40,633 nt of DNA from a virus, in the UHGV virus genome UHGV-0140992. One strand, given 5' to 3'. A program made the translations under genes and the position numbers. Position 1 is the stretch's first letter; each line of letters opens with the position of its first letter. A model generated the notes under the pieces. It saw nothing but the letters and a program-made list of their open reading frames with translations. It made no database searches and was not told where the DNA came from. Positions 8,175 through 31,623 of this stretch are shown here, in pieces.

Positions 8175-8186
8175 GTGACATGTCAC
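8175..8186. repeat. perfect palindrome GTGACATGTCAC, copy 1 of 3
   Basis: exact 12-mer shared with 10440 and 31612; intergenic. Confidence 0.6.
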
Positions 8187-8260
8187 AAACAGACAGCCTA
8201 TGAGCTGGCTTTGTTTTATCCTCACCAGAGGATATCAACGACATTATCCCCACCAGCGGA

Positions 8261-9736
8261 TTAAGCATAGGGATCGTAATCTGTGATGGCCTTGCCTTGC
8301 TGGTTCTGCTGACCGGGAATTCGCAGACGCTTCGACACAGGGAACGCAAACGTCAGCAGTAGCGCATCGCCTTTACCAGGAGAACGCCCAAGTCGCTCTT
8401 TGATATCTTCCTTCGGTTCGATAACGATTTTACCGTCCACTCGAACTTTGTACTCTGCTGCCGACAGGTCGTCCGCTGTTTCCTGGTCATCCAGCATGCC
8501 GCCCAGCCTCAGCCATGTCTTGCATGAATTGAACATCTCCCCACGCTTGTTGAGCATCTGCGGGTCAGTAGACGCGCCACCGAACGGAACAAGTTGCCAT
8601 GTACGACCCCATCCGTCACCGATTGACTTCAGACCGGTTCCGTAACCGAAGTCGATGAACACCGCGTCAGCCTGATACTGGTCTTCAAAGTCAGCGATAC
8701 GCTTCGCCATAATCAGATCGTCGGTAGTCTTGTTGCCAGTCCACAGCACCTTACTGTGTAGCCCCTGCCGCAGGTATATCACCGCGTCATCAACGCCTGA
8801 ATATGCCGGGTCAACACCGATTATCACCGGAGCATGCGCCACCTGCGCAGCGGTTACCACCCGTTTCATTGCCTCATCAGTAAGACCGGTAGGGATAAAC
8901 TGCAATTCAGATGCATCAGGGAATATGCCGCGCACACGGATTTTAACGAAGTCGCTGTCTTCCCCGTAGTCATCAACCCATTTCTGCAACTGCTGTTTGT
9001 TAGTGCCTTCCACCGTTCGGCTGTCAATCTGCGCAGTTTTCCAGCGGTGTTTATATTTGCGGAAACATTCGCGGAAACGTCCGGTATTACGCGTCGGGTT
9101 TCCGAACGCCACCCAGATAATCTCAGTGTCTTCGTCCGTTAGTGCACCCTCGGCAACTTCCCACACCAGATCCGCAATGTTCGACGCTTCATCGAATACC
9201 ACGATGATGCGTTTGCGCTCGTTGTGTAGTCCGGCGAATGCCTCAGTGTTGTGCTCAGACCAGGGGATTGCGTCAGCTCGCCACCGCTTGTCGTGTCCAG
9301 GATCATTGCTGTACATCGCGGTAGCGGTACAGGTAAACCAGTCTTTCGTGATAGCAAGGTTCGACCACTTGATAATTTCCGGCCAGGTCTTCGTTCGTAG
9401 CTGGTTGTCGGTGTTGGCGGTCACCACGACCTTACAATCCTCGCAAGTGGACATGCCCCAGTTGATCAGCATTGAGATGAATGCGGATTTACCAATACCG
9501 TGACCCGAAGCACGTGCCAGCATAAGCGGCTGATAGCGCGTCTCTGGATTCTGCAGGTGATCACGTATCTCTCGGAACGCATCAGCCTGCCACTGACGTG
9601 GGCCGGTAGCATGTGCCAGTTCAGTCCCCTCTTCCCCCCACGGGAACGCATAGAGGGCATAGCCAAGCGGATCGTGAGTGAACCCTGCAATATCCTCGAT
9701 CAACTGCTCTTCAGGAGATAACGCTGTATCTGTCAC
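8261..9736 (-). CDS. terminase large subunit, 491 aa
   Basis: Walker-A-like GHGIGKS; size; GTG start overlapping the small-subunit stop. Confidence 0.85.
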   Translation of the reverse strand: MTDTALSPEEQLIEDIAGFTHDPLGYALYAFPWGEEGTELAHATGPRQWQADAFREIRDHLQNPETRYQPLMLARASGHGIGKSAFISMLINWGMSTCEDCKVVVTANTDNQLRTKTWPEIIKWSNLAITKDWFTCTATAMYSNDPGHDKRWRADAIPWSEHNTEAFAGLHNERKRIIVVFDEASNIADLVWEVAEGALTDEDTEIIWVAFGNPTRNTGRFRECFRKYKHRWKTAQIDSRTVEGTNKQQLQKWVDDYGEDSDFVKIRVRGIFPDASELQFIPTGLTDEAMKRVVTAAQVAHAPVIIGVDPAYSGVDDAVIYLRQGLHSKVLWTGNKTTDDLIMAKRIADFEDQYQADAVFIDFGYGTGLKSIGDGWGRTWQLVPFGGASTDPQMLNKRGEMFNSCKTWLRLGGMLDDQETADDLSAAEYKVRVDGKIVIEPKEDIKERLGRSPGKGDALLLTFAFPVSKRLRIPGQQNQQGKAITDYDPYA

Positions 9737-10329
9737 TGATTACCATCCTGACGTTCTTTGAGTCGCTTCCTGGCTGCTGCTATGCGATCAGCAATTGTCA
9801 CATTCACATTAACATCCAGACGTTCTTTGAACGCGTTGACATCAACATGCTTACCAATCAGCTCAAGGTTCTTCACCTTGTCAGGCCATTTAATTTTTTT
9901 GAGGATTGTCTCTATCGAATCCTCGTTCATGTTCATGATGGTCGATGACAGATCAAAGCCACTAAGCGTAGTGCGCCAGATTTTCGGCCACTCACGGATT
10001 GGTTTAAGGCTCCCATCGTCGTTGAGGATGTCGATCACGTCCATCTGGTCGATCTCCACCAGGCGCATGAGAACGTAATCAGCACTGACGCGCATTCGTT
10101 TGTTGCGCTCCTCCATCAACTCGGCAATCCGTTTTTGAATGCGTTCATCGCGCATCATGACACTGGCTTTAACTGCCGCTGTATTTGGGGAGAATCCTGC
10201 GTTAATCGCTGCCTGAGTCTGGTTTTCAGGCGTTTTGATGTATGACTGGCAATAAGCCTCCTGCATTGCTGTTAGTGGCTTAAATTGCGTTGATTTGCGT
10301 TTATAGGTTTTAGGTTCAGCAGGCATCAT
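9733..10329 (-). CDS. terminase small subunit (track ORF to 10407; likely start MMPAEPK near 10329)
   Basis: basic/helical protein immediately upstream of TerL; the N-terminal extension in the track is encoded by a DNA tandem repeat. Confidence 0.65.
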   Translation of the reverse strand: MMPAEPKTYKRKSTQFKPLTAMQEAYCQSYIKTPENQTQAAINAGFSPNTAAVKASVMMRDERIQKRIAELMEERNKRMRVSADYVLMRLVEIDQMDVIDILNDDGSLKPIREWPKIWRTTLSGFDLSSTIMNMNEDSIETILKKIKWPDKVKNLELIGKHVDVNAFKERLDVNVNVTIADRIAAARKRLKERQDGNQ

Positions 10330-10336
10330 AACCACC

Positions 10337-10365
10337 GTGGTAATAGTTACCGTTGTGGTAATAGT
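10337..10365. promoter_or_regulatory. tandem GTGGTAATAGT repeat containing operator-type site TTACCGTTGTGGTAA (10347..10361)
   Basis: two 11-bp direct repeats 18 bp apart just upstream of the terminase operon; perfect TTACC-N5-GGTAA. Confidence 0.45.
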
Positions 10366-10372
10366 ACCATGC

Positions 10373-10398
10373 AAAATAAAGCCGCCATAGTTGGCGGC
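10373..10398 (-). terminator. intrinsic terminator
   Basis: gccgcca-tag-ttggcggc hairpin with a T-run on the minus strand. Confidence 0.45.
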
Positions 10399-10439
10399 AG
10401 TATTCAAAACCCATCAAATTCATCATGCATAATCTACTC

Positions 10440-10451
10440 GTGACATGTCAC
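10440..10451. repeat. perfect palindrome GTGACATGTCAC, copy 2 of 3
   Basis: exact 12-mer; overlaps the stop of the 115-aa ORF, upstream of the terminase operon. Confidence 0.6.
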
Positions 10452-10795
10452 ACTATTAATTTCGTTTCATGCCAGCCTTTAGTCACCCAGCATTGCGAGT
10501 CACCATTACACGGGCATGAATTAACTGGAACTCTCTCGCCGCACTTACCGCAACATTTTCTGCTGATCGATTTTATACGCCCGCGCACGCGTGCATCATC
10601 CTGGCGGATCAGTAACGCGATGTACTCGGCCATTTCATAGGGATCGCGACCAGGGCGCCGGGCGGCGCAGTTCCGCGCCAGCATTTCCTGCTCCTGCTTA
10701 TCCAGCACCAGTTCAATTTTGCGCTCACCGGCGGCGGACTGCCGAGCGCGCTGCGCGGCTTTGCGTTCTGCGGGGGATTTAGCCACGAATCGCAC
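10448..10795 (-). CDS. hypothetical protein with C-terminal Cys cluster, 115 aa
   Basis: ORF track; CCGKCGERVPVNSCPC motif; last gene before the late operon. Confidence 0.45.
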   Translation of the reverse strand: MRFVAKSPAERKAAQRARQSAAGERKIELVLDKQEQEMLARNCAARRPGRDPYEMAEYIALLIRQDDARVRGRIKSISRKCCGKCGERVPVNSCPCNGDSQCWVTKGWHETKLIV

Positions 10796-10901
10796 TCCAC
10801 GCCAGATTGATTAATGACTCCCAGGTAATATAAACCCGGATACCAGCAGCCAGGCCGAAACCAATCACCATGGCATAAAGCAGAGCGTTGCACTTGTTCA
10901 T
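10779..10901 (-). CDS. possible small hydrophobic protein, 40 aa (MNKCNALLYAMVIGFGLAAG...)
   Basis: AGGAGGT RBS; start overlaps the stop of the DUF551 gene (TGATG); inner part of track ORF 10779..11048. Confidence 0.3.
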   Translation of the reverse strand: MNKCNALLYAMVIGFGLAAGIRVYITWESLINLAWSAIRG

Positions 10902-11908
10902 CACTTCACCTCCTGCGGCGGTTCTGGTAGCGGCATCCAGAACAAGGCGTTCCCTAACCACGATAAAGTGCCGTCGCTCAACTCCACGTATTCCCCTTGT
11001 ACCTGTCCTGCCATATACTCGCCGTGCTTTGAATAAATTAAAATCCAATCATCTTGAGGGGGCATTCGCTCACTACAGCTTATCCAACCATCCGGAGTCA
11101 CCGGAAGCGAGAACGGCAGCACATCTCTGTGAACAAGTTTTTGCTGTGACAGGTTATCCAGAACTTTCTGTACTGCTGCATCACCGAATACACCAAGCGC
11201 ATCTGCCATAACTCCTACAACCTGATAAGCCTCAGCGCATACCGTGGATAAACCATCCGGAATATCCGGATAGTTGCCTGCCAGTCTACGCAAAACAGCC
11301 TTAACAGCCTCAATACGGTCATCATCGTAACTTTCCGCCGTATCTATGCGGTCGAGCATGATGATTGCGTTATCAATATCAGGATTGCCGGTCCACTCAT
11401 TACCGCGATTGGATTCGGCAGCCTGGTTGCCGCGTACTGGTTGATTGTCGGCTTTACCCAGTCTGTCGTCGCTGCATGAATGCCCTTCCAGCCAGGCCAA
11501 TGCTTGTCGCATGAAATACGCAATATGTTTGCCGTGGTAATCGTCTTCATCGATGTGAAAAGCGATACTACGAATGTATTCAATTGCGTTTTCAATGGCC
11601 TCTAACGCTATCGGCGCTGGCGGAGTGGTATATAGTTTTCGACATTTGTATATCCAACCGGCATGGTCAGGCGTGTCTGTAAAACGCAAATCGTCTTCGT
11701 AGCACTCACGACTACGTTCTTTCCATTCCGTCCACGGAACACCGCTATTCCAGGTGGGGCGAGTGCAGGACTGATACAGAACAGGCTCTGCTTCCAGCGA
11801 TGCCAGAGCAATTTCATAAGCCAGGCGCTCAATATTGTCTCGCACGTCCAGGCTGCCGATTCGCTCTCTGATTTCTTTAATCAGTTCTTTGTCGGTAAAA
11901 GTTGTCAT
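10901..11908 (-). CDS. DUF551-type prophage protein, 335 aa
   Basis: C-terminal region resembles the DUF551 family common in enterobacterial prophages (recall). Confidence 0.5.
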   Translation of the reverse strand: MTTFTDKELIKEIRERIGSLDVRDNIERLAYEIALASLEAEPVLYQSCTRPTWNSGVPWTEWKERSRECYEDDLRFTDTPDHAGWIYKCRKLYTTPPAPIALEAIENAIEYIRSIAFHIDEDDYHGKHIAYFMRQALAWLEGHSCSDDRLGKADNQPVRGNQAAESNRGNEWTGNPDIDNAIIMLDRIDTAESYDDDRIEAVKAVLRRLAGNYPDIPDGLSTVCAEAYQVVGVMADALGVFGDAAVQKVLDNLSQQKLVHRDVLPFSLPVTPDGWISCSERMPPQDDWILIYSKHGEYMAGQVQGEYVELSDGTLSWLGNALFWMPLPEPPQEVK

Positions 11909-11918
11909 GTGTTAGTCC

Positions 11919-12182
11919 TTATCCTGCTGTGCTTTCAACTGATGAGGGGAACAAAATCTTTTCATCAAACCCTGCATTCATATCATGAACAGCAACACAC
12001 CAATCCATTGACGAACGATTATCAAGAGCCTCCATGATTTCATCCATGCGGCGCAGGTCATACAGGTAAATGCTTTTATCGCCAATGGTGTAAAAACCAA
12101 TTTTTTTCGGTGATGGGCAGCGATCAAGAACGTCCTGTAATTCATTCAACCATGCCCGTTCTTTTTTTGTTAAAGTTGCCAT
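11919..12182 (-). CDS. hypothetical protein, 87 aa
   Basis: ORF track; co-oriented. Confidence 0.4.
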   Translation of the reverse strand: MATLTKKERAWLNELQDVLDRCPSPKKIGFYTIGDKSIYLYDLRRMDEIMEALDNRSSMDWCVAVHDMNAGFDEKILFPSSVESTAG

Positions 12183-12183
12183 A

Positions 12184-12714
12184 TCACTCTCCTTTGATGC
12201 GAATGCCAGTGGTACTCATTCTCCTGATTTCCCAGAGCACACGAGGAACACCACCGTTTCCGACCGGATCGCGTTTACTCCGCAGGGCGACGCTTGATTC
12301 CGCCCAGCTTTTTCTTGGAGGAAGCTCTTTCACACGAACAAAACCAGCTGCGCGAAGAGATGCTCCTGATTCATCTGCCCGGGTGTACGTAATACAACGT
12401 TGATAACCCATAGCTTTTGCTGCCCGCCAGACAGCACCATAAAGCGCGCTGTTAGCGTTGCGTTCTCCTGTGGTACATGTGCGATTTACTTCAAGCGTTA
12501 ATCCATCGTCCAAATGTCGTGCAACAGGTCGACCGGCTGTCGCCACACCTATCAATTCTCCGGCATCATTTCTCAGACCAATGCTGAATTTATGCCCCAC
12601 CGGGGGTTTATTGTGTCGGTGATGTCTGGATATAAATGCCTTCGCAACACGAAGAGTAACCGGTGAAATCTGCACTCTCACTCTCCTTTGATACCAATGT
12701 TTACAGTCTGGCAA
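12184..12714 (-). CDS. hypothetical protein, 176 aa (possible acetyltransferase-like fold)
   Basis: ORF track; weak GNAT-like motif; C-terminus IRIKGE matches the neighbouring Ea22-like gene. Confidence 0.4.
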   Translation of the reverse strand: MPDCKHWYQRRVRVQISPVTLRVAKAFISRHHRHNKPPVGHKFSIGLRNDAGELIGVATAGRPVARHLDDGLTLEVNRTCTTGERNANSALYGAVWRAAKAMGYQRCITYTRADESGASLRAAGFVRVKELPPRKSWAESSVALRSKRDPVGNGGVPRVLWEIRRMSTTGIRIKGE

Positions 12715-13406
12715 GCTTCTCTGAGCACCCAGTCAATAGCGTCTTTCCATGCTCCGGTTTCGACTGACGGATTTTCACGCTTAACCTGTTCATAGAAGCG
12801 CACTGCTTTAACCAGTCCTTCCGGTACTACTGGCGATGGCTGTTTAGCTTCTAAATCAGCAATTCTGTCAACCACGGCATCGACAGCATCTGAAAAGCCG
12901 AACCAGTTACTCCACTCCGGTCTGTCCCCGGTTGCTGCAAAGTACATATCAGCTAAAGCAGACTCAGCATGGTCACGCTCATTGATGAGTTGCTCTTCGC
13001 TTTTCTCCAGTTCAGCAATACGATTACTTCCATCCGAGATAACACCTTCGTAATACTCACGCTGCTCGTTGAGTTTTGATTTTGTCTCCTCAAGCTCAAC
13101 ACGCAGCTTCCCTACCGTTAGCGCAATATCCTCGTTCTCCTGGTCGCGGCGTTTGATGTATTGCTGGTTTCTTTCCCGTTCATCCAGCAGTGCAAGCACG
13201 GTAGCCGGATTAGCCTTGGCAACAAAATCCCGGACTGGCTTACAATCAATCTCCGCAATGGGTTGATACGATGTGTAGCCATGCTGTCTTGTATAACTAC
13301 CGTGACGAATAACGAAAAAATCACCATTTATTTTTTTAGCCTGCCACTTATCTTCACCGGCTTTCTCTGCCGCTTCACGCAGTGCATGATAGTTAATTTT
13401 GTTCAC
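12678..13406 (-). CDS. Ea22-like protein, 242 aa
   Basis: coiled-coil-rich protein in the nin/ea region; family assigned by recall. Confidence 0.5.
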   Translation of the reverse strand: MNKINYHALREAAEKAGEDKWQAKKINGDFFVIRHGSYTRQHGYTSYQPIAEIDCKPVRDFVAKANPATVLALLDERERNQQYIKRRDQENEDIALTVGKLRVELEETKSKLNEQREYYEGVISDGSNRIAELEKSEEQLINERDHAESALADMYFAATGDRPEWSNWFGFSDAVDAVVDRIADLEAKQPSPVVPEGLVKAVRFYEQVKRENPSVETGAWKDAIDWVLREACQTVNIGIKGE

Positions 13407-14008
13407 TGGTTGCCTCCTTTGCGAAGCTCTGCGGCAAAGTCAACTAACCACTCGGTCATTTCAACCTTCCCTACCAGGTCTGAACCAGGAAACATACAGC
13501 AATCACTCTGCGCCGCTTTGAAATCCTTATACTCATATTCCTGAGCCACCAGATTTTTTGCAGCTTCTATAACAGCATCCACCCCCTGCGCCCGTACTTC
13601 AGCCAGGAAAGCGTCGGTGGCTTGGGTTTCGATATCGTTAATTTCAGGAAGAATCTCTTCCCATGTAGCGATATCGCCATTCAAATGCCATCCGGCAATT
13701 CCACTGGAGTTATCCGCAACACTGCGAACGGCTTCAATAGTTTCATGCATTGCCGCATTCTCCGCTGCCAGCGCCGAAAACTTCTCGTGTGCCAACTTAA
13801 CAGCCGCATCAGCCTGCTTAATTGACTCAATCGCTTTCTGCTGGTCTTCGGCCAGCGCATTAGCACGCACCAGTTGCACTTCCAGTTGCGTTGCCAAATC
13901 GCTGATCAGCTTTGCCACACTGCGCATATCAACGGCACCACATTCTGCTTTCAGTTCCGAAGCCATCTCATGCCCGGCGGCAACTAACCCTTTGATATTA
14001 CTTTCCAT
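13403..14008 (-). CDS. Ea22-like protein, 201 aa
   Basis: ORF track; acidic coiled-coil composition. Confidence 0.45.
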   Translation of the reverse strand: MESNIKGLVAAGHEMASELKAECGAVDMRSVAKLISDLATQLEVQLVRANALAEDQQKAIESIKQADAAVKLAHEKFSALAAENAAMHETIEAVRSVADNSSGIAGWHLNGDIATWEEILPEINDIETQATDAFLAEVRAQGVDAVIEAAKNLVAQEYEYKDFKAAQSDCCMFPGSDLVGKVEMTEWLVDFAAELRKGGNQ

Positions 14009-14069
14009 CTTTACCCTCGCTTATCCACATAACTTATTGATTACATTGATAACTAAAAAGATCGTCGAT

Positions 14070-14414
14070 TCAGAACTCTTCGATGTTCCAGCCACCACCT
14101 GCTTTCTTTGGTTTAACCGTTACCCCGATGATTCGGAACGGATACTGATCTGCGGCGACTTTGGTTTTCACCCTGGCGTCGTCGGTCCAGAAACCTTTCA
14201 CTTCGTGCAGTTCCATCTCTCCGGTGGCGAGCATCACAGCGAAATCGGGCGTATAGAACGTGTTGTCAGCTAACCGCAGCTTGATACCCTCGAATCGATA
14301 CCAGGCGATTTCCCCTGCACGTTTACGCTGCTCAAGGTGCTGGCAATACGCAGATTCTGTTTTGTTCATCTGGCCTGTTTTGAGTCGACCAAGAGCCTGT
14401 ATCTGTTTTCTCAT
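14070..14414 (-). CDS. DUF1064-type phage protein, 114 aa
   Basis: resembles DUF1064 family (recall). Confidence 0.5.
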   Translation of the reverse strand: MRKQIQALGRLKTGQMNKTESAYCQHLEQRKRAGEIAWYRFEGIKLRLADNTFYTPDFAVMLATGEMELHEVKGFWTDDARVKTKVAADQYPFRIIGVTVKPKKAGGGWNIEEF

Positions 14415-14417
14415 GAT

Positions 14418-14494
14418 TTACCTCTAAGGTAATTGAAAACCATATAAGACACGAAATCAATAGAGTTTAGAATATTTTGTTACCTTGTAGGTAA
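14418..14494. promoter_or_regulatory. two operator-type sites TTACCTCTAAGGTAA (14418..14432) and TTACCTTGTAGGTAA (14480..14494)
   Basis: perfect half-sites, 62 bp apart, between the P-like gene end and the DUF1064 gene start. Confidence 0.45.
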
Positions 14495-14503
14495 TTGTTG
14501 AGG

Positions 14504-14528
14504 CGTAAAAAAATGCGCTATCGCGCTG
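14504..14528 (-). terminator. weak intrinsic terminator after the P-like gene
   Basis: short GCGC hairpin with a 7-T run on the minus strand. Confidence 0.3.
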
Positions 14529-14531
14529 GTA

Positions 14532-15308
14532 TTACTTGATAAATCCTGCCGCCTTTCCCCGCCTGTATTCCTCCATCAGCCACTGCGCCGGTGTTATTCC
14601 CCCAAGGGTGGCGGCGTTAGGCATGCACCCGAAACTTCGCCCTGGTGGATGGTAAACGTCTCTCCCTGTGTCCGGAGGTGTACTCATGGGCTCTGGCTTT
14701 GCCTGTATGCTGATCACCGGATCGGGTATCTGCTGTCCGGAAGCCACCTTTTTCGCCCAATCATCGAGCAGCCTGCGCGCGTGTTTCTCAACCTCACTCT
14801 CGCTAAGCTGGCGCTGATACATTGCACGACGGGTATCACATACGACCCAGTACATAACCGGATGCCGCCACGGGAATCTTTCGGGACCACCAGGATATAA
14901 ACTTTTTTCCTTGCTGTACCGGTGAAACTCCGCCATCACATCGTCAATGGTGACGCCAAGAACCATCTTGCTGTCTTTGCACCACTTGATGAATTGCCCT
15001 GGCGACGGCCAGAACGGAGATTCACTGGCGCGGGCGTGGCGCATACCAGCGTTAACCTGTTCCATTGTAGTGATCCCATTCTCCAGAAACGCAAGCATCC
15101 ATTGCTTACGGAATTCATTAAGTTTGTTCTGCTCCCTTATGGTCGAAACGCTTGCAGGAAATGCAGCCTGTAACTGGACAAATAGTTCATTGAAAATTCT
15201 AGCAACCTGCTCCTTTTTGCCATTGCTGTCACGCCGCTCTTCATGCACAGCAACACCATGCTCACGTAAGCGATCGTACTCATTGAGAAGTTCTGGAGTT
15301 GATTTCAT
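14532..15308 (-). CDS. replication protein P-like (helicase loader), 258 aa
   Basis: clear similarity to lambda P, e.g. FPAS...EQN...RKQWMLAFLENGITTMEQVNAGMR. Confidence 0.8.
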   Translation of the reverse strand: MKSTPELLNEYDRLREHGVAVHEERRDSNGKKEQVARIFNELFVQLQAAFPASVSTIREQNKLNEFRKQWMLAFLENGITTMEQVNAGMRHARASESPFWPSPGQFIKWCKDSKMVLGVTIDDVMAEFHRYSKEKSLYPGGPERFPWRHPVMYWVVCDTRRAMYQRQLSESEVEKHARRLLDDWAKKVASGQQIPDPVISIQAKPEPMSTPPDTGRDVYHPPGRSFGCMPNAATLGGITPAQWLMEEYRRGKAAGFIK

Positions 15309-16110: not shown

Positions 16111-16303
16111 AGGTTTCCCCTCTTGCACTCTTTAGTGCACAAGCAAATTCATTACGATGGCGGTTGGCGCTATTCATTGCACATTCAACACATGTTCCGT
16201 TCAGAACATACCTTTCAGAGAGATGGCCGTGACGGCACCGCTTTCCTGTGAAATAGCGATTTAACCCGGCTTTTGCGGCCTCCATTCTGGTTACTATCTT
16301 CAA
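16091..16303 (-). CDS. hypothetical small Cys/His-rich protein, 70 aa (cII position)
   Basis: ORF track; between the Cro-like and O-like genes. Confidence 0.4.
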   Translation of the reverse strand: MKIVTRMEAAKAGLNRYFTGKRCRHGHLSERYVLNGTCVECAMNSANRHRNEFACALKSARGETYGKQLD

Positions 16304-16403
16304 TTTTTCCGCCCCTTTTTGTTATTGATATTGACTATTTTGCACAATTGGAAAATTTGATCAACCAGATTTGGTTTTTTATTACCCTTAAGGTGCGAAT
16401 AGA

Positions 16404-16430: not shown

Positions 16431-16451
16431 ACAGAGGGTTGTGGCTGGATA

Positions 16452-16718: not shown

Positions 16719-16781
16719 TCACCCATAAGGTAACAAAAATCAAGGATAGTTACCTATGAGGTGCATTTACCTGTTGGGTAA
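16719..16781. promoter_or_regulatory. OR-like operator cluster: TCACCCATAAGGTAA (16719), TTACCTATGAGGTGC (16750), TTACCTGTTGGGTAA (16767)
   Basis: three 15-bp inverted repeats at 31- and 17-bp spacing between divergent Cro-like and CI-like genes. Confidence 0.6.
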
Positions 16782-16836
16782 TATTGCTTTAAATTGAATC
16801 ATCTACTGATTCATATATGAGGCGATTTTCCAGAAA

Positions 16837-17467: not shown

Positions 17468-17478
17468 TGCCAGATAGA

Positions 17479-17555
17479 TTACCTTACGGGTAATTTTTTT
17501 AACTCATATCTATTGACACCAAACCAAATAAGCATAATTATTACCCCAACGGTAA
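17479..17555. promoter_or_regulatory. OL-like operators TTACCTTACGGGTAA (17479) and TTACCCCAACGGTAA (17541) around a TTGACA hexamer
   Basis: two perfect sites flanking TTGACA at 17513, upstream of the plus-strand operon. Confidence 0.55.
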
Positions 17556-17574
17556 CAGACCGAGGTAACAAGTT

Positions 17575-24179: not shown

Positions 24180-24477
24180 GTTTAGACCTCGATACTTTAA
24201 AAATTTGAACGACGTTACCGCGCGTTTTAATAACCGCAGCCAGCATGACAGCGTTGATAATGACCTCAGATAAATCCACAGCCATTGGCGTACGTAACCA
24301 GATTGCATAGGCGACTCGAACAGGAATACTGGCCGCAGCAACAATCAGGAAATAAGCAAGCCATCCTCCCCACCTTCGATGTTGAGAGCCGTTACGCCGG
24401 AATGTGACAACGCGAATTGCTATGCCAGTGCAAATAACTGCATTGGTGATAAGCAAAAAAAACTCATGCGTTACCAT
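24169..24477 (-). CDS. holin-like membrane protein, 102 aa
   Basis: three predicted TM segments; overlaps the endolysin start. Confidence 0.5.
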
Positions 24478-24868
24478 CGTCTTTTCTCCCCGGAATTAAC
24501 TCGCGTGGATTATCGGAACGGTGATAGAGCCATATACCAATACGCACAGCGACAATTGCTGACACGAATGCGCCTGCAGAGAAAACAATCCCTTTTTCAA
24601 AAGAGTCCTGCGTGATGGTAGGGATCAGGCTGGCTATGCCGATAAGAATTGATGCTGCTGGTTTGTAAAAGAGAAGGCCGCAAAGAAAGCTGAGCATCGA
24701 CAGGAGCACCCGGCGACGGATGGGGTACTCTACTGCAGAGGTAACAAAAATTACCGCCCCAGCCAAAGCCCCTAAAGCAACCTCCGGAGGGGCACCTGCA
24801 ATAACCGCAGCAAGAGAACTAAAACTAAGCAACTGATTTAATTGCTCACTTGTTACTTGAGCAGACAT
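24464..24868 (-). CDS. holin-like membrane protein, 134 aa
   Basis: multiple hydrophobic helices; first gene of the lysis cassette. Confidence 0.45.
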   Translation of the reverse strand: MSAQVTSEQLNQLLSFSSLAAVIAGAPPEVALGALAGAVIFVTSAVEYPIRRRVLLSMLSFLCGLLFYKPAASILIGIASLIPTITQDSFEKGIVFSAGAFVSAIVAVRIGIWLYHRSDNPRELIPGRKDDGNA

Positions 24869-25149
24869 ACTTTCTCCTGTTTACTATCTATAAGCCAGTC
24901 AATTATTGATGACTAAACCCGCATAGTAAACCATATATGAATCATTATTGTTCCATATCATATATCTCAATAAAAGTACTAATGATTTTACAGAACGAGC
25001 CAGCAGAGTGGGGGCAGTTGTACAGGAACCATAGACTTAATTTTGTATTTAATAATGCTATGGTGTAATAAACCTGAACATGTATTTAAAATACGTACTG
25101 ATTCATGATAGAATTCAAAGATAACTTTTCACAAACTCCGTTTTTGATA

Positions 25150-25178
25150 CCCGCAAAATATTGCGGGCTTTTTTTTAA
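25150..25178 (+). terminator. plus-strand intrinsic terminator abutting the tailspike stop
   Basis: cccgcaa-aata-ttgcggg followed by CTTTTTTTTAA; U-run only on the plus strand. Confidence 0.45.
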
Positions 25179-28100
25179 CGTTCTTCCAGAGACTGAATCC
25201 GCTCTTTTATCTTATCCATTTCTCTGCGCTGCCATGCTGCCTCGATATAGAATAAGAGATCAGGTCTGACCCCCCATCTAGATCCTGCTGGCGTTATTTC
25301 AACGCGCTCAATGATGTCTTCCATTACCATCACTGGATTATCATCCTCATCAACAATGATGCTCCCGTCATTATCAGTCAGCGGCATTTCCCTTTGGCCA
25401 GTAATGACGTCATCATATACTGCGGGATAATCGTCATAGCAAAGAAAGGCATAGCGGCATGTTGTGCTTTCTTCTTCCATGAGTCCGTGAGAAATAAGAA
25501 CATCACGAAGTTGCTGCGCGATTACACCATGATGTATCCTCGCCCCTTCTTCCCCCTTTATAGCGACAGCGTTCAGCCATTTATAAGCGATATACCTGAC
25601 GTCACCCCAGGCATCCAGCAATGCTTCGTCAGGAGAGACCGGCTCTGTCTTTAATGTTCCGTCACTGGTAACCACAGGATTGGAGCCAAGATAAACTGTC
25701 GAGAACCTGTTTCCCGGACCACCAAGAGCATTTACATTATCAAGATAAGGTTTAACATCTCCGTTCTCAAAAAGATGTTCGAGTGCGTTATATACCGCGC
25801 GACGTGGAGTACTGCTTCCGGAACCATGCAACGTTATCATTGCACCATCTGCTGAAGACGTTATTTCACCGCCGCTAACGATTAATCTCTGAGCGGTAAC
25901 ATCATCAGACGGTACTTTCTTCGCAATAATGGCGTAATTACCCTCAAGTTTGACTTCCGCGCGAACTTGTCCTGATGTACCTGCATGGACAGTCAGTGAC
26001 TGGACGGCAACATCATCTGTGAAATCAACGGGTACAGGAACCGTCCTCACGCCTGACGTCGACATAAAAGTAGGAAGCGTTCTGTTAGGAGTGGCTCCGT
26101 AGACAAAATCCCTTGAAACAAATTCTTCCTGTTTAATTTTCACCCTGAAACAATACAAATCAGCCGGGTGACCATCGTGAACATAAGGATATTTTCTGTT
26201 GTTATCCCCTATGCTCCATGGGTTTAGAAAGTCTTCCCCACCGAAAATGTAGTACAGCCAGTTGTCTTTGATACAAACTGAACCAACACCAACTGCAGAG
26301 TTAACTATTCCGCCCTGATAAATCTGATCAGTAACATTAACCCACTCTACATTATCCAGACTCCACTCATTGACGTTAACTCTGGTCATAAATGTTCTTG
26401 GATAATTTCCTGCATAACGGTTATCAGGTTCTCCTCCTTCCCACTCACCAAATGCGCGCTCACTGCCAAAAATAATCAGCTCATCGCCAACTTTGGCAAA
26501 AGGAAGGTTTGAGTGATGAACATTATTTGGGAAGCGAAGAGAATTCCATGATGTACCTAAATCAGAGCTTCTGTGCAATGAACTACCGGGTTGAGTACTT
26601 AATGTCCCCCTGGTCGTCAGATACAGAATGCCATCATAATATTTTACACATGGCTCAGATGCATTCGCCTCATATTCTGCAGGTATGCGTCTGCGAACAA
26701 AGCTACCAGGAGAACCGAAAGCATCAGAGAAATAGAGTATCCCAAGCTCGCGTGGACCAATATCACCATTATGGTAGCCAACAGCAAAACTGTTATCGCT
26801 AATCGTCGCAAAACTGTGAATCTCAGTAACAGGAGTGCTTCCGTCAACAAAAGAAGGAATAGTTCCAAGACTGGTTTTTCTCCATGGTGACGAGTGAAAT
26901 GATGTACCAAAACTCCAGTATCTACCCTCGTTATTCTGATCCACATCCTGGGTATTTTGCGTCGTAACTGTAAAAGTATTTTTATCAATAACAGTAGTCA
27001 CCGTCATATTCCCGGTAACACCTGTAACACCAGAGTTTGAGAAGTTGACAAAATCACCAGCAAATAATCCGTGATCAGTAATGCGAATATAAGCGACTTG
27101 CTGATTTGCTGCTTTCGTTATACCACCATAAGCGCGAAGGCTGCGACTCATTGGGCGATCCCACAACTCTGCAACCTGCAGTTTATTTCCGCTCACGGTC
27201 CGCGTCTCAATTACAGCAAAAAGGCGATTTCTGACAACCCCCATACTCATGCAGTGATAGTTAACTGTGGGATAGTTTTCATGTAAATCTGTAAGCCATT
27301 CCGGCGTTGTCCAGGTCTTCCCGTCATCTCCTGAGCGAACCCATGCAACATGGAGGTTATTTACACCATGGCGGTCTCCAGCCATAAAAGGCGCATAGAT
27401 GACATTGTCATATACAAACGTTTTATCCTGCGTCCAGGCGTTGTACCACGGTGTATCTGTAATTTTAAATAACTCTCCCTGGATAAAATCTTCAGAAGCA
27501 TAAAAAAGAGGCTGGCCCGGTATTCTCTCAAATAAAAAACGAGCATTTTTAAATCGACTGACATCCGGAAGAGTTGATACTTTAAAAGTAAGCCCTAATC
27601 CGTCAATTTTATAACCTGGAGATGAGGCTTCAAGGCACGCGCTTATTGCAGTGGAATCGTCATTTATACCATCACCAACAGCTCCAAAATCTTTGGGGCT
27701 AATAGCATCACGCATTTTATCCTGGAACGTTCGGTACACAGCCCCAGAACCATACTGAATAAACCAACCAAAACCACCAACAACCCCGGCGATTGCAGCA
27801 TCGACATAATTACGCATTGAGCGATTATTTACAGCGTCCTGCTCAAATGATGGATCTGCAAGGTTAGAAATTTTGTTTTGCTTTGCATCGTAATATTTTG
27901 CAAGCAAAGATGGTTTCATCAATGCACGTCTGAACCACCCAAAACATTGCTGGATCAGCATCGTCAGGTAGTCAAAGGCATCTTCATGCACTTCGGGGAA
28001 AAATTTTCCCTGATTGCGAAGGTCTGTCTCCTGCACTACATCAAGCACACGATCTATCGTAATTCGCCATCCAGTAGCAAGCGGAGACGGAAGAACCACA

Positions 28101-28294
28101 GAACCGCCACTATAAGTGCCCGCCCCAGTTACCGTATAACCGGTATCCAGAACCAATTCTGTTACGTTTCCGTTCAGGTCAGACACCTGAACAACCAGGT
28201 CTGATTTTCTGAAAATTCGAAAAGTATACGGAAACGATGTCGTAACGCCGTTACCGGTGTATTCGTTGTGGTCAACTTCGGTTGAGACCGTCAT
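25175..28294 (-). CDS. tailspike endo-N-acetylneuraminidase (K1 endosialidase) with C-terminal intramolecular chaperone domain, 1039 aa
   Basis: long blocks match recalled phage K1F endosialidase (FERIPGQPLFYASEDFIQGELFKITDTPWYNAW ... EWLTDLHENYPTVNYHCMSMGV); chaperone-domain motifs (LGSNPVVTS, TEPV, DAWGDV) near the C-terminus. Confidence 0.85.
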   Translation of the reverse strand: MTVSTEVDHNEYTGNGVTTSFPYTFRIFRKSDLVVQVSDLNGNVTELVLDTGYTVTGAGTYSGGSVVLPSPLATGWRITIDRVLDVVQETDLRNQGKFFPEVHEDAFDYLTMLIQQCFGWFRRALMKPSLLAKYYDAKQNKISNLADPSFEQDAVNNRSMRNYVDAAIAGVVGGFGWFIQYGSGAVYRTFQDKMRDAISPKDFGAVGDGINDDSTAISACLEASSPGYKIDGLGLTFKVSTLPDVSRFKNARFLFERIPGQPLFYASEDFIQGELFKITDTPWYNAWTQDKTFVYDNVIYAPFMAGDRHGVNNLHVAWVRSGDDGKTWTTPEWLTDLHENYPTVNYHCMSMGVVRNRLFAVIETRTVSGNKLQVAELWDRPMSRSLRAYGGITKAANQQVAYIRITDHGLFAGDFVNFSNSGVTGVTGNMTVTTVIDKNTFTVTTQNTQDVDQNNEGRYWSFGTSFHSSPWRKTSLGTIPSFVDGSTPVTEIHSFATISDNSFAVGYHNGDIGPRELGILYFSDAFGSPGSFVRRRIPAEYEANASEPCVKYYDGILYLTTRGTLSTQPGSSLHRSSDLGTSWNSLRFPNNVHHSNLPFAKVGDELIIFGSERAFGEWEGGEPDNRYAGNYPRTFMTRVNVNEWSLDNVEWVNVTDQIYQGGIVNSAVGVGSVCIKDNWLYYIFGGEDFLNPWSIGDNNRKYPYVHDGHPADLYCFRVKIKQEEFVSRDFVYGATPNRTLPTFMSTSGVRTVPVPVDFTDDVAVQSLTVHAGTSGQVRAEVKLEGNYAIIAKKVPSDDVTAQRLIVSGGEITSSADGAMITLHGSGSSTPRRAVYNALEHLFENGDVKPYLDNVNALGGPGNRFSTVYLGSNPVVTSDGTLKTEPVSPDEALLDAWGDVRYIAYKWLNAVAIKGEEGARIHHGVIAQQLRDVLISHGLMEEESTTCRYAFLCYDDYPAVYDDVITGQREMPLTDNDGSIIVDEDDNPVMVMEDIIERVEITPAGSRWGVRPDLLFYIEAAWQRREMDKIKERIQSLEER

Positions 28295-28398
28295 GTTAAA
28301 TCTCCAGATAGTCGCAGCACCCGTTGCGCCGCATATCTGGTTATTCTATTACCTGGAAAACCACATATGGATAGAAAGGATGTAAATACGAATAGATA

Positions 28399-28413
28399 TT
28401 ACCTTTCAGGTAA
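28399..28413. promoter_or_regulatory. operator-type site TTACCTTTCAGGTAA
   Basis: identical 15-mer to 7224; in the divergent region between tailspike and the LexA-box gene. Confidence 0.45.
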
Positions 28414-28450
28414 TTTGCAAAACGTGCTGGATAGCAAACAAATTATTTGA

Positions 28451-28470
28451 TACTGTATAAATATACAGTT
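28451..28470. promoter_or_regulatory. LexA (SOS) box TACTGTATAAATATACAGTT
   Basis: 18 of 20 match to consensus TACTGTATATATATACAGTA, intact CTGT-N8-ACAG, overlaps a TATAAAT -10-like element about 20 bp before the downstream ATG. Confidence 0.65.
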
Positions 28471-28489
28471 ATTGCATGGAGAAGATAAG

Positions 28490-28747
28490 ATGCAGCAGTA
28501 TCACTATCCACTGGAAGACGGATTTACCGAAAGGATTCACACGCCGGGAGGCGTCAGGTCACTGGTGGAGGGATCGCACTTGATGAAATTACTCCGGGAT
28601 CTCGATAAGGATGGATTTAATGTCGATGGCCCACTTGCCGAACTGACTGCACTGATTAACTACGTCACCAGCTCACAGATGTCTATGCAGGATCTGCAAA
28701 CACATCTCGACTATTGTGCCGAACAATTACGAAAACAAACCCGGTAA
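28490..28747 (+). CDS. small antirepressor-like protein, 85 aa (track 28472 is TTG; ATG at 28490)
   Basis: GGAGAAG RBS; LexA box and operator upstream; about 45 percent identical by eye to the C-terminal domain of the Bro-N protein at 29896..30606. Confidence 0.55.
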   Translation: MQQYHYPLEDGFTERIHTPGGVRSLVEGSHLMKLLRDLDKDGFNVDGPLAELTALINYVTSSQMSMQDLQTHLDYCAEQLRKQTR

Positions 28748-28769
28748 ATTTAAAGGCCGCAAGAGCGGC

Positions 28770-29498
28770 CTATCGTTTCGCTTTGTGCTCGTCCCAGCAC
28801 GTTTTGCACCATGCCATTAAGCCGTCCGCATTTTGATTATTAGGGTAAAAGCTGGTCCGTTTTCTGCGGACATTACAAATTGGGCACCACTTCATATGGC
28901 GTGTATTCTTTGGGCCATCGAGACACCTTGCACACCACTTAGTCAATCCATCTGGATTTTTTGACGATTTCCGGAATTTGTCATATGGAAGGTTTATTCT
29001 GCATCGCAAACACTGCTTGCGGCCACTTGAAACTCTGTTAGCTGATTCTTCTTTTGGCGGCGATACAGAAGGTATTCTTGCTGGCTCTGATACTGCCTGA
29101 GGTGCTTTTTTAGATGACTGAGACGATATGTCATCACCAGGGAATCTTCCATGATATGCCGGACGCATTGATACTCCAGGTGGAAGCTCAGCTGTAAACG
29201 GCTTTGGCTGAATCAGTTGCCTCTCTTTTGCTAACTCCTGCTGTTTACAATATGTCTGGATTACCGCACTATCATAAGCAGGAGGTGCGGAAATATTAGG
29301 CGCATTACCTCCAGTTTTTTGAAACTGAGTAGAGGTGTGTTCTATCACCTGTGTACGATTAATCGTTATCTCCCCATCTTCGGTCTTTATCGTTTTGTTA
29401 TGATTAACGACCGTACGATCAGAGATCTTAGTCTTGTTCTGGTTGATAACGTAAATAATCACCGCAACCACACCAACAACTATCCAGAAAACTTCCAT
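28770..29498 (-). CDS. membrane-anchored protein with duplicated CxxC zinc-ribbon module, 242 aa
   Basis: N-terminal TM helix; two copies of CxxC-x(20)-DGL-xx-WC-xx-C; GAGGAA RBS. Confidence 0.5.
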   Translation of the reverse strand: MEVFWIVVGVVAVIIYVINQNKTKISDRTVVNHNKTIKTEDGEITINRTQVIEHTSTQFQKTGGNAPNISAPPAYDSAVIQTYCKQQELAKERQLIQPKPFTAELPPGVSMRPAYHGRFPGDDISSQSSKKAPQAVSEPARIPSVSPPKEESANRVSSGRKQCLRCRINLPYDKFRKSSKNPDGLTKWCARCLDGPKNTRHMKWCPICNVRRKRTSFYPNNQNADGLMAWCKTCWDEHKAKR

Positions 29499-29518
29499 TG
29501 CTTTTCCTCACAATAACA

Positions 29519-29626
29519 TTACCTTAAAGGTAATATCTTGCTTTCAGGTGATCAAGCGTTAAACGCCACCAACCAAATACGGTTGATTTTGATATTTCTC
29601 CGCGTTTATCATTACCTTTGCGGTAA
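29519..29626. promoter_or_regulatory. operator-type sites TTACCTTAAAGGTAA (29519..29533) and TTACCTTTGCGGTAA (29612..29626)
   Basis: perfect half-sites between the divergent 242-aa gene and the Bro-N gene. Confidence 0.45.
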
Positions 29627-29639
29627 ATTTACATCGCAC

Positions 29640-29880
29640 TCCTCTTGTGCCATAGTAATCGGGCACTGGCAAAATCCAGTGCCGGGATTGGCGTCCCGGG
29701 TTACTAAGTGGCGCATACCACGCCAGACGTGGTTTTTTTATGCGTTAAGCACAGCTATATCCGAATTATGGTGGGCTGGGCAGGGGTCCGAAAGGACGCC
29801 GGTACCACTTAGGCCGGTACGCCAACCTTGTCCAGTTCACCACCAGTAATTGGCGTTGCGGTGGTGATTAAAATCACTAA
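29640..29880 (+). other. highly structured non-coding leader upstream of the Bro-N gene
   Basis: nested inverted repeats GGCACTGG-caaaat-CCAGTGCC and CCGGGA-ttggcg-TCCCGG; CCACG-ccaga-CGTGG followed by TTTTTTTA; direct repeat GCCGGTAC. Confidence 0.3.
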
Positions 29881-29895
29881 GTGGAGATAACCACC

Positions 29896-30606
29896 ATGGC
29901 TAATGCTCAAACTTCCATCTTCAAATTTGAATCTGTTAACCCTATCCGTTCCATCATTATCGATGGCCAACCATGGTTTGTAGCCCAAGACGTTTGTAGT
30001 GCGCTGCGTATCCAAAACGTCACCCAAGCACTTGAAAAACTGGATGATGATGAAAGGTCTATGTTCAACATAGGGCATGAACATCGTGCAATTTTTGACA
30101 GCCGAGTAAAAGAGATCAACATCATCTCCGAGTCAGGCCTCTACACACTGATCCTCCGCTGCCGCGACGCAGTGACACCAGGCACTATCCCCTACCGCTT
30201 TCGTAAATGGGTTACGGGTGAGGTTCTTCCTCAGATCCGCCGCACCGGAAGCTACATTAAAAACTCGCTCCCGCAGGAAGAACGCATAAAGATGGTTGCC
30301 GACCAGGTGGCCAACGCCACGGCGTCAGCAGTAATGCAGGCGATGAAGATAGAGAACAAAACCTACAGCGCCCCACTGAATCCCGGCTACCGCAGCCTGA
30401 TTCATTCGCCGTCTGGTGTTCTCGGCCTGACGGAGAACTCACTGCTGATGAATCTGCTGAACCAGTTACAGGACGACGGGCACGACGTATCGGGCGCGGC
30501 GGCGGAGCTGACCACCATGTTCTGCTACATCGTCGGTGTGAGCAAATGCCTGCGTGATATCCAGACCCACGCGGAATACATCAACGACAAGGCAGGGTTC
30601 TTCTGA
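29896..30606 (+). CDS. Bro-N domain antirepressor-like protein, 236 aa (ATG at 29896)
   Basis: N-terminal Bro-N-type motifs (FKFESVNPIRSIIIDGQPWFVAQDVCSAL); C-terminal domain paralogous to the 28490 gene. Confidence 0.65.
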   Translation: MANAQTSIFKFESVNPIRSIIIDGQPWFVAQDVCSALRIQNVTQALEKLDDDERSMFNIGHEHRAIFDSRVKEINIISESGLYTLILRCRDAVTPGTIPYRFRKWVTGEVLPQIRRTGSYIKNSLPQEERIKMVADQVANATASAVMQAMKIENKTYSAPLNPGYRSLIHSPSGVLGLTENSLLMNLLNQLQDDGHDVSGAAAELTTMFCYIVGVSKCLRDIQTHAEYINDKAGFF

Positions 30607-30613
30607 CGGGCGG

Positions 30614-30640
30614 TGGCACAGGGATGTGCCTTTAAATAAT
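30614..30640 (+). terminator. weak intrinsic terminator after the Bro-N gene
   Basis: ggcaca-ggga-tgtgcc followed by TTTAAATAATT. Confidence 0.3.
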
Positions 30641-30678
30641 TCTGTACAGATTGCAGACTGTGGGTGAATAGCGTACTA

Positions 30679-30693
30679 TTACCTTAAAGGTAA
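30679..30693. promoter_or_regulatory. operator-type site TTACCTTAAAGGTAA
   Basis: identical to 29519; immediately before AGGAGG and the ATG at 30706. Confidence 0.45.
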
Positions 30694-30705
30694 AGGAGGC
30701 GCGAT

Positions 30706-30873
30706 ATGACAGCGTTGAAAAATCGTACTCAGCACAATGAACAAGCCAAGCAATGCTGGGATGTCATTGGAAAAGTTATGCTTGGCCGCGCAAGCAAAGA
30801 GCGCGACAAGGATATGGTTTACCAGACAGGAACATCTTTCAGCGACTTCAAGGCGGCATTTCGCTCCAAATAG
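30706..30873 (+). CDS. possible small protein, 55 aa (MTALKNRTQHNEQAKQCWDVIGKVMLGRASK...)
   Basis: AGGAGG RBS 6 nt upstream; operator directly upstream; below the ORF-track cutoff. Confidence 0.4.
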   Translation: MTALKNRTQHNEQAKQCWDVIGKVMLGRASKERDKDMVYQTGTSFSDFKAAFRSK

Positions 30874-30893
30874 AAGCACATCAGGAGTTTTCC

Positions 30894-31334
30894 TTGAAGT
30901 TTAACATTAGAATATCTAATAGTTTTCTACATGGGGAAAGCAACACCCCTTTCGCTGTAGACGGACCTTTCCTTACTGATGATGAAATAAAAATCATACA
31001 AAGTTTTTTAGAGGATGTTGCCAATGGAAGGGCGCTTGTTGGAAAAAACAAGCCCTCGTGGGTTGATGATAACCATGATAAAATTCCCGGCTCAGACAAT
31101 TATGAGCAAGAGAATTATTGGCATTATCATTGTGGGCCAACATGGTATCCAAACACATTTAAGAATTATACCATTAACTTAAATTTCAACCCTGGCGGAA
31201 GGCATTCTAATGAATGCATTCATTATGCAAAAAATGATAATGAAATTGTCATTGTTGGATTTTCAAGAGAACACATACCTTTCCTTTCATCAGATGGAAA
31301 CAACAATCCGCTTTTTAATGATGAAGAAGAATAG
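30894..31334 (+). CDS. hypothetical AT-rich moron protein, about 146 aa (TTG start; track ORF begins 30753)
   Basis: AGGAG RBS 7 nt before in-frame TTG; markedly AT-rich codons versus flanks; acidic C-terminus. Confidence 0.4.
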   Translation: MKFNIRISNSFLHGESNTPFAVDGPFLTDDEIKIIQSFLEDVANGRALVGKNKPSWVDDNHDKIPGSDNYEQENYWHYHCGPTWYPNTFKNYTINLNFNPGGRHSNECIHYAKNDNEIVIVGFSREHIPFLSSDGNNNPLFNDEEE

Positions 31335-31426
31335 CCCGCGCTGCGGGCTTTTTTGTGGACGAAACAAAAGTCAGTGCTACACTCATTGACGCCACATTGA
31401 GGTGGCTTATAGATGGAAATTTCACA

Positions 31427-31588
31427 ATGAAAAAAGCATTTGCTGCACTGTTCGTTTTGTTGTCTCTGGTAGCTTCAACTCAGGCCTTTGCCGGTCGTTG
31501 TCAGCACGACAGCGACACTGCTGCTGACGGCTCCCGCTGCGGTGGGCGTTCTGCGGACTCCCGTCCGGGCGGCGGTGGCATTCGTTAA
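31427..31588 (+). CDS. small secreted Gly/Cys-containing peptide, 53-aa precursor with signal peptide
   Basis: MKKAFAALFVLLSLVASTQAFA signal-like N-terminus with AFA-G cleavage context; 31-aa Gly/Asp/Arg-rich mature part with two Cys. Confidence 0.35.
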   Translation: MKKAFAALFVLLSLVASTQAFAGRCQHDSDTAADGSRCGGRSADSRPGGGGIR

Positions 31589-31594
31589 AAACAA

Positions 31595-31610
31595 GGCCGC
31601 GAAAGCGGCC
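31595..31610 (-). terminator. hairpin GGCCGC-GAAA-GCGGCC with minus-strand U-run
   Basis: 6-bp GC stem, GAAA loop; TTGTTTTTAA follows on the minus strand. Confidence 0.4.
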
Positions 31611-31611
31611 T

Positions 31612-31623
31612 GTGACATGTCAC
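31612..31623. repeat. perfect palindrome GTGACATGTCAC, copy 3 of 3
   Basis: exact 12-mer between the small hydrophobic ORF stop and the hairpin. Confidence 0.6.

Follow-up and report, generated by a model that had tools for sequence, protein, structure and literature searches.

What is a perfect 12-bp palindrome doing at three gene junctions of a phage genome, and which protein reads it? The question is raised by the UHGV virus genome UHGV-0140992, a stretch of 40,633 nucleotides that was analysed at its full length (the window). It represents a complete, circularly permuted genome of a podovirus similar to epsilon15 and phiV10 (genus Uetakevirus), in which the minus strand carries the late genes. 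The palindrome, GTGACATGTCAC, starts at positions 10440 (site 1, the primary copy), 8175 (site 2), and 31612 (site 3). Site 1 overlaps the end of an open reading frame (ORF) for a small protein with a predicted ribbon-helix-helix (RHH) domain and four clustered cysteines (Cys4), and we propose that this protein is the reader of all three copies. The pairing of the site with this neighbouring cysteine-cluster ORF is the key point of the analysis, and it was absent from the preliminary description of this DNA.

Exactly three copies of GTGACATGTCAC are present in the window, with no further exact copy, and dinucleotide shuffles of the genome yielded 0.00 copies. This confirms the three palindromes listed in the preliminary description, whose account of the gene context was also borne out at all three junctions. 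To correct for the post hoc choice of the motif, we asked for any palindromic 12-mer repeated in first-order Markov simulations (n = 1000): none of the 1000 simulations contained one three or more times, and 21 contained one twice. The three copies have in common the 14-mer CGTGACATGTCACA, in either orientation. A single copy with one mismatch lies at 5173, inside the portal gene; this number is within chance expectation, and the copy is not retained as a site in relatives.

The gene at 10448-10786 is annotated as "hypothetical protein" in RefSeq and occurs in 697 of 5426 complete E. coli genomes. Its product is the counterpart of epsilon15 gp49, phiV10 gp55, and N15 gp46, and corresponds to phrog_536 in PHROGs, where it is labelled "transcriptional regulator". 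A "gp46" detected in lysogens of the telomere phage NAR688 is the cB repressor and does not belong to this family. The protein and 83 family members gave no Pfam match, no match was obtained in NCBIfam or among PDB sequences, and Foldseek returned nothing useful. In the family alignment, a basic N-terminal helix is followed by a predicted RHH, a long helix, the Cys4 cluster (CxxC-x8-C-x7-C), and a terminal helix; the pattern KIELVLD / helix / RRPGRDPYE / helix is of the RHH-protein type. The AlphaFold model has a pLDDT of 81. With moderate confidence, the fold is predicted to be an RHH dimer with a C-terminal Cys4 (zinc) module. The gene is found in at least six unrelated temperate phage lineages, including epsilon15, phiV10, N15, phiKO2, and ZF40, and all hosts of the carriers found are Enterobacterales or Vibrio.

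The palindrome also goes with the gene in other phages. Homologues with 35-77% identity in N15-like, ZF40-like, lambda-like, P2-like, Pantoea, and Vibrio phages display YGTGAC-N2-GTCACR at or near their own stop codon. The gene-end site reads TGTGACATGTCACA in the myovirus ZF40, GTGACATGTCAC in the true lambda-like phage Chlobot, GTGACCTGTCAC in the Pantoea phage AH07, GTGACTGGTCAC in the linear plasmid-prophage N15, and TGTGACGCGTCACA in the P2-like Yersinia vB_YenM phages, while in Vibrio siphoviruses of the K303 type it lies 238 nt downstream of the gene. GTGAC-N2-GTCAC is located at the gene stop, or no more than 21 nt from it, in all 49 N15-like loci, and the linkage holds in 47 of 51 Yersinia P2-like loci and in 37 of 46 ZF40-like loci. 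The half-sites are invariant and the centre dinucleotide is clade-specific (AT, TG, GC, CT, or AC).

The spacing between the half-sites is equally strict. We counted GTGAC-Nn-GTCAC in 3.43 Mb of pooled phage DNA surrounding family members, in which about 3 occurrences are expected per spacing. A spacer of 2 was found 404 times against 3.3 expected, and spacers of 0, 1, 3, and 4 were found 0, 2, 1, and 0 times, respectively. Of the pooled sites, 98% are flanked by Y and R. Lambda, P22, and P2, all of which lack the gene, have zero N2 sites; copies of GTGAC-N1-GTCAC in lambda were dismissed as coding-region coincidences. The gene-linked sites, the strict spacing, and the lack of sites in gene-less phages together indicate that gene and site form one module and that the site is the 14-bp YGTGAC-N2-GTCACR. 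Its position on or just after the stop codon makes gene and primary site a portable unit. From this co-occurrence of gene and motif, the protein encoded at 10448-10786 very probably binds the sites. Of the earlier suggestions, a protein-binding site for a phage-encoded factor is the best reading.

The same data bear on the possibility that a host factor (MatP, SlmA, or CRP) binds the palindrome and that the neighbouring phage gene is irrelevant. SlmA recognizes the consensus GTGAGTACTCAC and CRP recognizes TGTGA-N6-TCACA. The palindrome is alike to the half-sites of matS, the MatP target, matches the SlmA site at 8 of 12 positions, and contains half-sites of the CRP type. However, its spacing fits none of the three: it reads TGTGA-N4-TCACA, and the preliminary description was correct in stating that this is unlike CRP. 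Moreover, in at least six lineages the sites go with the phage gene, and phages that lack the gene lack them too; the centre dinucleotide changes with the clade of the phage protein, and prophages are otherwise reported to avoid matS. Recognition by a host protein is therefore very unlikely.

Barely credible is a role as an RNA or DNA structural element, in which the 12-mer would serve as a transcript hairpin, as part of a terminator, or as a processing site. It is palindromic and lies in transcribed 3' regions beside terminator hairpins, yet as a hairpin it forms only 4 bp and a tetraloop (-1.2 kcal/mol, z = -0.03), which is not stable and no better than shuffles. No compensatory "stem" changes are seen across lineages, in which the centre varies, and the Y/R flanks, like the full dyad symmetry, suggest that double-stranded DNA is what is recognized.

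Within the Uetakeviruses, the arrangement of all three copies is retained. Epsilon15, a Salmonella phage about 81% identical in the terminase region, carries the exact 12-mer three times, at the equivalent junctions 39612, 2142, and 19517. The phages phiV10, phiv142-3, and Tyrion (an Enterobacter phage) also have the site at all three equivalent junctions, two of the copies being the variants GTGACATGTTAC and GTGACACGTCAC. The exact 12-mer stands at the gene end, equivalent to site 1, in epsilon15, phiv142-3, and Tyrion. Site 2 corresponds to epsilon15 2142, phiV10 2262, a copy in phiv142-3 (GTGACACGTCAC), and Tyrion 2702, and site 3 to epsilon15 19517, phiV10 19493, phiv142-3 7086, and Tyrion 20377. 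In 78 of 80 Uetakevirus loci from IMG/VR, the homologous RHH-Cys4 gene has the exact 12-mer at its end, and in 49 of 75 loci a further N2 site lies 2.0-2.9 kb downstream of site 1. Since the flanks differ among phages, the motif itself must be under selection. The preliminary description had held the 12-mer itself to be the conserved unit and had proposed looking for it at equivalent positions in relatives; both points stood up in these four phages.

Between relatives, homology breaks off right at the site, and at least four different contexts are found downstream of site 1. A recombination or module-exchange signal, also raised in the preliminary description, would turn the palindrome into a short joint for swapping cassettes, with protein binding secondary. 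The abrupt end of homology agrees with it, as do non-homologous morons that share the 3' end ..AATAACACC followed by the site: the moron ORF beside site 2 has no homology to phiV10 p03, the gene at the same position, and both end in these same 9 nt. This lack of homology also rules out site 2 as the partner of a conserved moron gene. However, homology is expected to break wherever a functional module ends, and homologous recombination needs more than 12 bp. A joint would also leave unexplained why the spacing is strictly 2 bp, why the flanks are Y/R, why the centres are clade-specific, and why conserved copies lie within genes in N15 (repA) and ZF40. The site does mark module boundaries and is better read as a protein-binding site; we give exchange by recombination only a slim chance. 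A cos or pac packaging site was also ruled out: the phiV10 record starts mid-site only because it was cut directly after the gp55 stop, the epsilon15 record is cut elsewhere, and in phages whose terminases are unrelated the site still stands after the RHH gene, far from terS.

Beyond the gene-end copy, genomes carry zero to two extra copies, whose position is conserved within a lineage and differs between lineages. In Uetakeviruses, every copy lies between a stop codon (of the RHH gene, the opposite-strand moron, or the last small late ORF) and an intrinsic terminator. N15-like phages have an extra copy in the 5' third of repA, where at least 20 nt are invariant amid synonymous variation, and another past gene 33. 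In most of them the latter (28546-28565 in the N15 locus) reads CCCC-GTGACCAGTCAC-GGGG followed by a T-run, a longer inverted repeat unlike the other copies. In ZF40-like phages, the second gene of each early operon contains a copy, and the two, separated by 2-3 kb, bracket the immunity region. In ZF40, the exact copies at 5125 and 7622 bracket cI/cro symmetrically, within the leftward and rightward early operons, and the pair is kept in seven relatives. Such a pair would be well placed for looping or for blocking early transcription on two sides. AH07 has one copy inside a Q-like gene. In Vibrio K303, one copy lies 19 nt before the terS ATG and another about 110 nt before a promoter and terminator that precede the holin gene. 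The K303 region 33336-33495 displays a promoter-like TTGAAA-17-TATGTT and then a strong terminator just upstream of the holin gene; the layout is similar to lambda pR'-tR', with the RHH-Cys4 gene in the "Q position" and no Q-type antiterminator annotated. Chlobot and the Yersinia P2-like phages have the gene-end copy only. Across the lineages compared, no copy occupies an obvious promoter-operator position.

This distribution is reminiscent of matS, whose pattern is GTGAC[AG]N[TC]GTCAC (PMC3603311) and which MatP binds via a central RHH in a protein that also has a C-terminal oligomerisation element (PMC12756933). MatP organises the Ter macrodomain of the chromosome in E. coli and its relatives. 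Prophages have otherwise been reported to avoid matS. By analogy, dimers of the phage protein could pair or bridge phage sites, or shield DNA from SMC (structural maintenance of chromosomes) complexes of the MukBEF type, and so organise replicating DNA instead of acting on transcription. Several features agree: the half-sites are identical to those of matS, the fold that MatP uses is the one predicted here, the sites are few, often intragenic or 3'-terminal, and absent from promoters, as with matS, the hosts are Enterobacterales or Vibrio (a range that may reflect search bias), and the symmetric bracketing in ZF40-like phages fits. Against this, the spacer is strictly 2 (404 N2 sites versus one N3 site in the pooled phage DNA), the four-helix bundle and coiled coil of MatP are absent, and the single-site Chlobot and Yersinia P2-like phages would allow no bridging within one genome copy. 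The window has no matS-spaced N3 site, even allowing one mismatch. Comparison by hhalign of two family alignments with E. coli MatP and with an 82-sequence MatP alignment was not significant (probability 0.1-0.2%, E about 0.4), and no Pfam MatP match was obtained. Membership in the MatP family is not established, as neither spacing nor homology agrees.

We consider a DNA organiser of this kind unlikely, although worth keeping in mind. Temperate phages of Enterobacterales and Vibrio might, with a similarly small chance, carry a portable matS-like system made up of a minimal RHH-zinc protein and a few YGTGAC-N2-GTCACR sites. Being one base pair off matS, it would let MatP and the phage protein avoid cross-talk, and it would organise, pair, or insulate DNA in lytic growth. 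If true, such a system may shield phage DNA from SMC complexes of the MukBEF or Wadjet type. An equally new alternative would be a DNA-tethered factor between stop codon and terminator that sets termination efficiency unit by unit.

Our preferred reading is that the three palindromes are the cognate sites of the 10448-10786 protein and that it acts at transcription-unit boundaries; as a whole explanation this is tentative, its chances being somewhat under even. The protein would be made from the last gene of the early-right operon during lytic growth and, once made, would occupy the three sites. These would stand at the 3' ends of three units: the early-right operon, the opposite-strand moron, and the terminase-to-structural late block. 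There, the protein may act on elongating RNA polymerase, either by serving as a roadblock or insulator or by modulating the terminator next to the site, and pairing of sites through the C-terminal module would also be possible.

Read-through of the terminator t1 into terS is required in any case. Between t1 and the start of terS there are 50 nt, occupied by two repressor-type operators and a Shine-Dalgarno sequence; this leaves no promoter space, so that terS can be reached only via transcription through t1. Control of elongation or termination is preferred on account of the stop-site-terminator order at all three copies, the position of t1, with site 1 lying 42 nt upstream of it, and the lack of room for a terS promoter. 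The preliminary description had placed two copies beside hairpins or terminators; the adjacency is real, but the count was too low, since all three copies lie beside terminator-like hairpins. The arrangement weakly suggests that the protein affects transcription at unit boundaries or bridges DNA, and a role in termination or antitermination is possible.

Several observations weigh against this explanation. Terminator adjacency is confined to the Uetakeviruses; N15, Chlobot, and many Uetakevirus variants have the Shine-Dalgarno sequence of the next gene directly after the site, and the extra sites in ZF40-like and N15-like phages are inside genes. Such lineage-specific placements mean that one mechanism at transcription boundaries may not cover the whole family. 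A roadblock beside an already good terminator looks redundant, and at site 2 the terminator precedes the site when read in the late direction.

The position of the gene also invites comparison with a Q-like late switch, in which site 1 would belong to a late promoter or a loading site, the protein would carry RNA polymerase through t1 into terS-terL, and sites 2 and 3 would be secondary. The gene is in the "Q position": no early gene comes after it, and a terminator followed by the first late genes lies directly downstream. The layout of Vibrio K303, upstream of promoter, terminator, and holin gene, is similar. There is no space for a terS promoter past t1, and no Q homologue is annotated in Uetakeviruses. 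In addition, GTGACA of the site can be read as a -35 element (GTGACA-18-CATGAT here, GTGACA-17-TAAATT in epsilon15 and Tyrion). Yet at least 21 relatives have a 70-aa ORF after the site and no longer show the -10 fit, the transcription start predicted in epsilon15 falls inside the terminator stem, and promoter geometry is lacking at sites 2 and 3. The fit is not conserved, and a general sigma-70 promoter role of the GTGACA half-site was rejected. ZF40, N15, Chlobot, and AH07 have bona fide Q-like genes alongside the homologue, and the protein has no similarity to any Q family in Pfam, NCBIfam, or PDB, PHROGs returning phrog_536 only. Taken together, a Q-like switch is distinctly improbable. 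The late activator proposed in the preliminary description is likewise unlikely as a general role: copies 2 and 3 are at the 3' ends of units and not upstream of late operons, some phages with a homologue have Q-type antiterminators of their own, and the promoter-like fit of the primary copy is lost where the extra ORF is present. Boundary action by the RHH-Cys4 protein is the reading that we prefer. Table 1 lists the three copies and the features around them.

Table 1. Palindrome copies and surrounding features in the window (40,633 nt)
Feature	Coordinates	Strand	Description
Site 1 (primary copy)	10440..10451		late-strand reading TGTGACATGTCACG; overlaps the TGA stop of the RHH-Cys4 gene
Site 2	8175..8186		4 nt past the stop of moron ORF 7829-8170 (+); 7 nt before a hairpin with T-run; TerL end 8261 (-) on the other side
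Site 3	31612..31623		7 nt past the stop of the 46-aa hydrophobic late ORF (-); abuts a minus-strand terminator hairpin directly
Gene for the presumed site-binding protein (RHH-Cys4)	10448..10786	-	112 aa; GTG start 10786 after GGAG; alternative GTG 10795
Intrinsic terminator t1	10381..10398	-	GCCGCCAACTATGGCGGC then TTTATTTT; between site 1 and terS; kept in epsilon15 and Tyrion
Hairpin, bidirectional terminator-like	8194..8207		A-run and T-run flanks; between site 2 and TerL end; phiV10 annotates a terminator at the equivalent place
Intrinsic terminator	31594..31611	-	AGGCCGCTTTCGCGGCCT then TGTTTTT; directly follows site 3 when read in the late direction; the phiV10 record has a terminator at the corresponding position
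Moron ORF	7829..8170	+	3' end ..AATAACACC adjoins site 2; phrog_27507
tRNA-Arg(TCT) moron	7561-7637	+	
Small hydrophobic late ORF	31631..31771	-	46 aa, phiV10 p21-like; same length as phiV10 p21 (141 nt); stop precedes site 3
ATTACC-N5-GGTAAT copies	7223-7239, 10328-10362, 14417-14495, 16766-16782, 17478-17556, 22795, 28398-28414, 29518-29627, 30678-30694		second dyad

A second dyad, ATTACC-N5-GGTAAT, is far commoner in the window, with 14 copies at two or fewer mismatches against 1.06 expected, located in intergenic regulatory regions. It is the motif annotated as repressor-binding sites in the epsilon15 record; it differs from GTGACATGTCAC, which was therefore rejected as the prophage repressor operator. 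Each late block (terS, the gp3-like gene, and the tail fibre gene) has copies upstream of it, and this placement suggests that the prophage repressor may act directly on late units.

Other observations concern the genes around the sites. A terS ORF called from TTG 10407 would span t1 and two operator dyads; the gene probably starts at ATG 10329 or 10326, in line with the annotation of phiv142-3 and epsilon15. The 70-aa ORF found between site 1 and t1 in at least 21 relatives contains cysteines (positions 3357-3575 in locus L013) and is missing from the corresponding segment here, 10399-10439, where only its last 25 nt or so are left. Three relatives (L063, L066, and L079) have a LexA box and an umuD-like moron at the spot after site 1. 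Two terminator-like hairpins, at 7681-7716 and 7801-7817, lie between the tRNA-Arg(TCT) and the moron ORF. The circle was opened inside a p15-like tail gene, of which 1-1427 and 39589-40633 (1427 + 1045 nt) make up 2472 nt, the length of phiV10 p15.

Neither the protein nor the site has an entry in Pfam, NCBIfam, or the searched literature. No paper of that literature contains GTGACATGTCAC, two matches for the N15 variant are mammalian primers, and the ZX5 paper covers repressor, antirepressor, and integrase only. What appears to be new is an orphan RHH-zinc family with a gene-linked 14-bp site that mimics matS half-sites and lies at 3' ends rather than promoters. An orphan family matched to a precise 14-bp site with a strict spacing rule constitutes a directly testable protein-DNA system. 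It also offers a handle on late transcription control in epsilon15-like phages, where terS needs terminator read-through, and the sites are a practical marker of module boundaries in annotating these prophages. Their near-identity to matS raises the question of whether phages copy or deliberately avoid the chromosome-organising code of the host.

Known systems share parts of this arrangement. Like the RHH regulators P22 Arc, Mnt, CopG, omega, ParG, and the RHH antitoxins, the phage protein is small, is predicted to form a beta-alpha-alpha dimer, has a short palindromic target, and ends in a C-terminal oligomerisation or effector extension, as Mnt and NikR do. In contrast, those regulators bind promoter operators upstream of the genes they control, whereas the phage sites are 3'-terminal or intragenic, and neither the Cys4 module nor the 14-bp site has been described for any of them. 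The SlmA and CRP sites are 12-bp-type dyads with outer GTGA...TCAC, or TGTGA/TCACA halves in the case of CRP, and the likeness is one of resemblance only: the inner bases are unlike the SlmA site, N4 stands against N6 of CRP, and SlmA (TetR family) and CRP are helix-turn-helix proteins.

The lambda-type Q proteins with their QBE/qut sites (lambda Q, 82 Q, 21 Q, and P22 gp23) are also small, zinc-containing DNA-binding proteins encoded by the last early gene. Their DNA site lies just past the gene, upstream of the terminator preceding the late genes, as in the Uetakevirus and Vibrio K303 layouts. They differ in that there is no homology, the site here is a perfect dyad present three times in the phage, twice without promoter geometry, and a true Q coexists with the protein elsewhere. 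The partition cis sites of P1 (parB-parS) and F (sopB-sopC) likewise stand directly downstream of the gene of their own binder and travel with it as a cassette; in the phages, however, the module has no partner ATPase, its protein is of an unrelated type, and it occurs in integrating prophages as well as plasmid prophages. With MatP/matS, the phage system shares GTGAC and GTCAC, a palindrome presumably bound by an RHH dimer with a basic helix before and a long helix after, few sites per replicon outside promoters, and the same host clade. The matS site has 13 bp with a 3-bp spacer, whereas the phage site is one base pair shorter with a strictly 2-bp spacer, the phage protein has a Cys4 module in place of the four-helix bundle and coiled coil, and its site is joined to the stop codon of its own gene.

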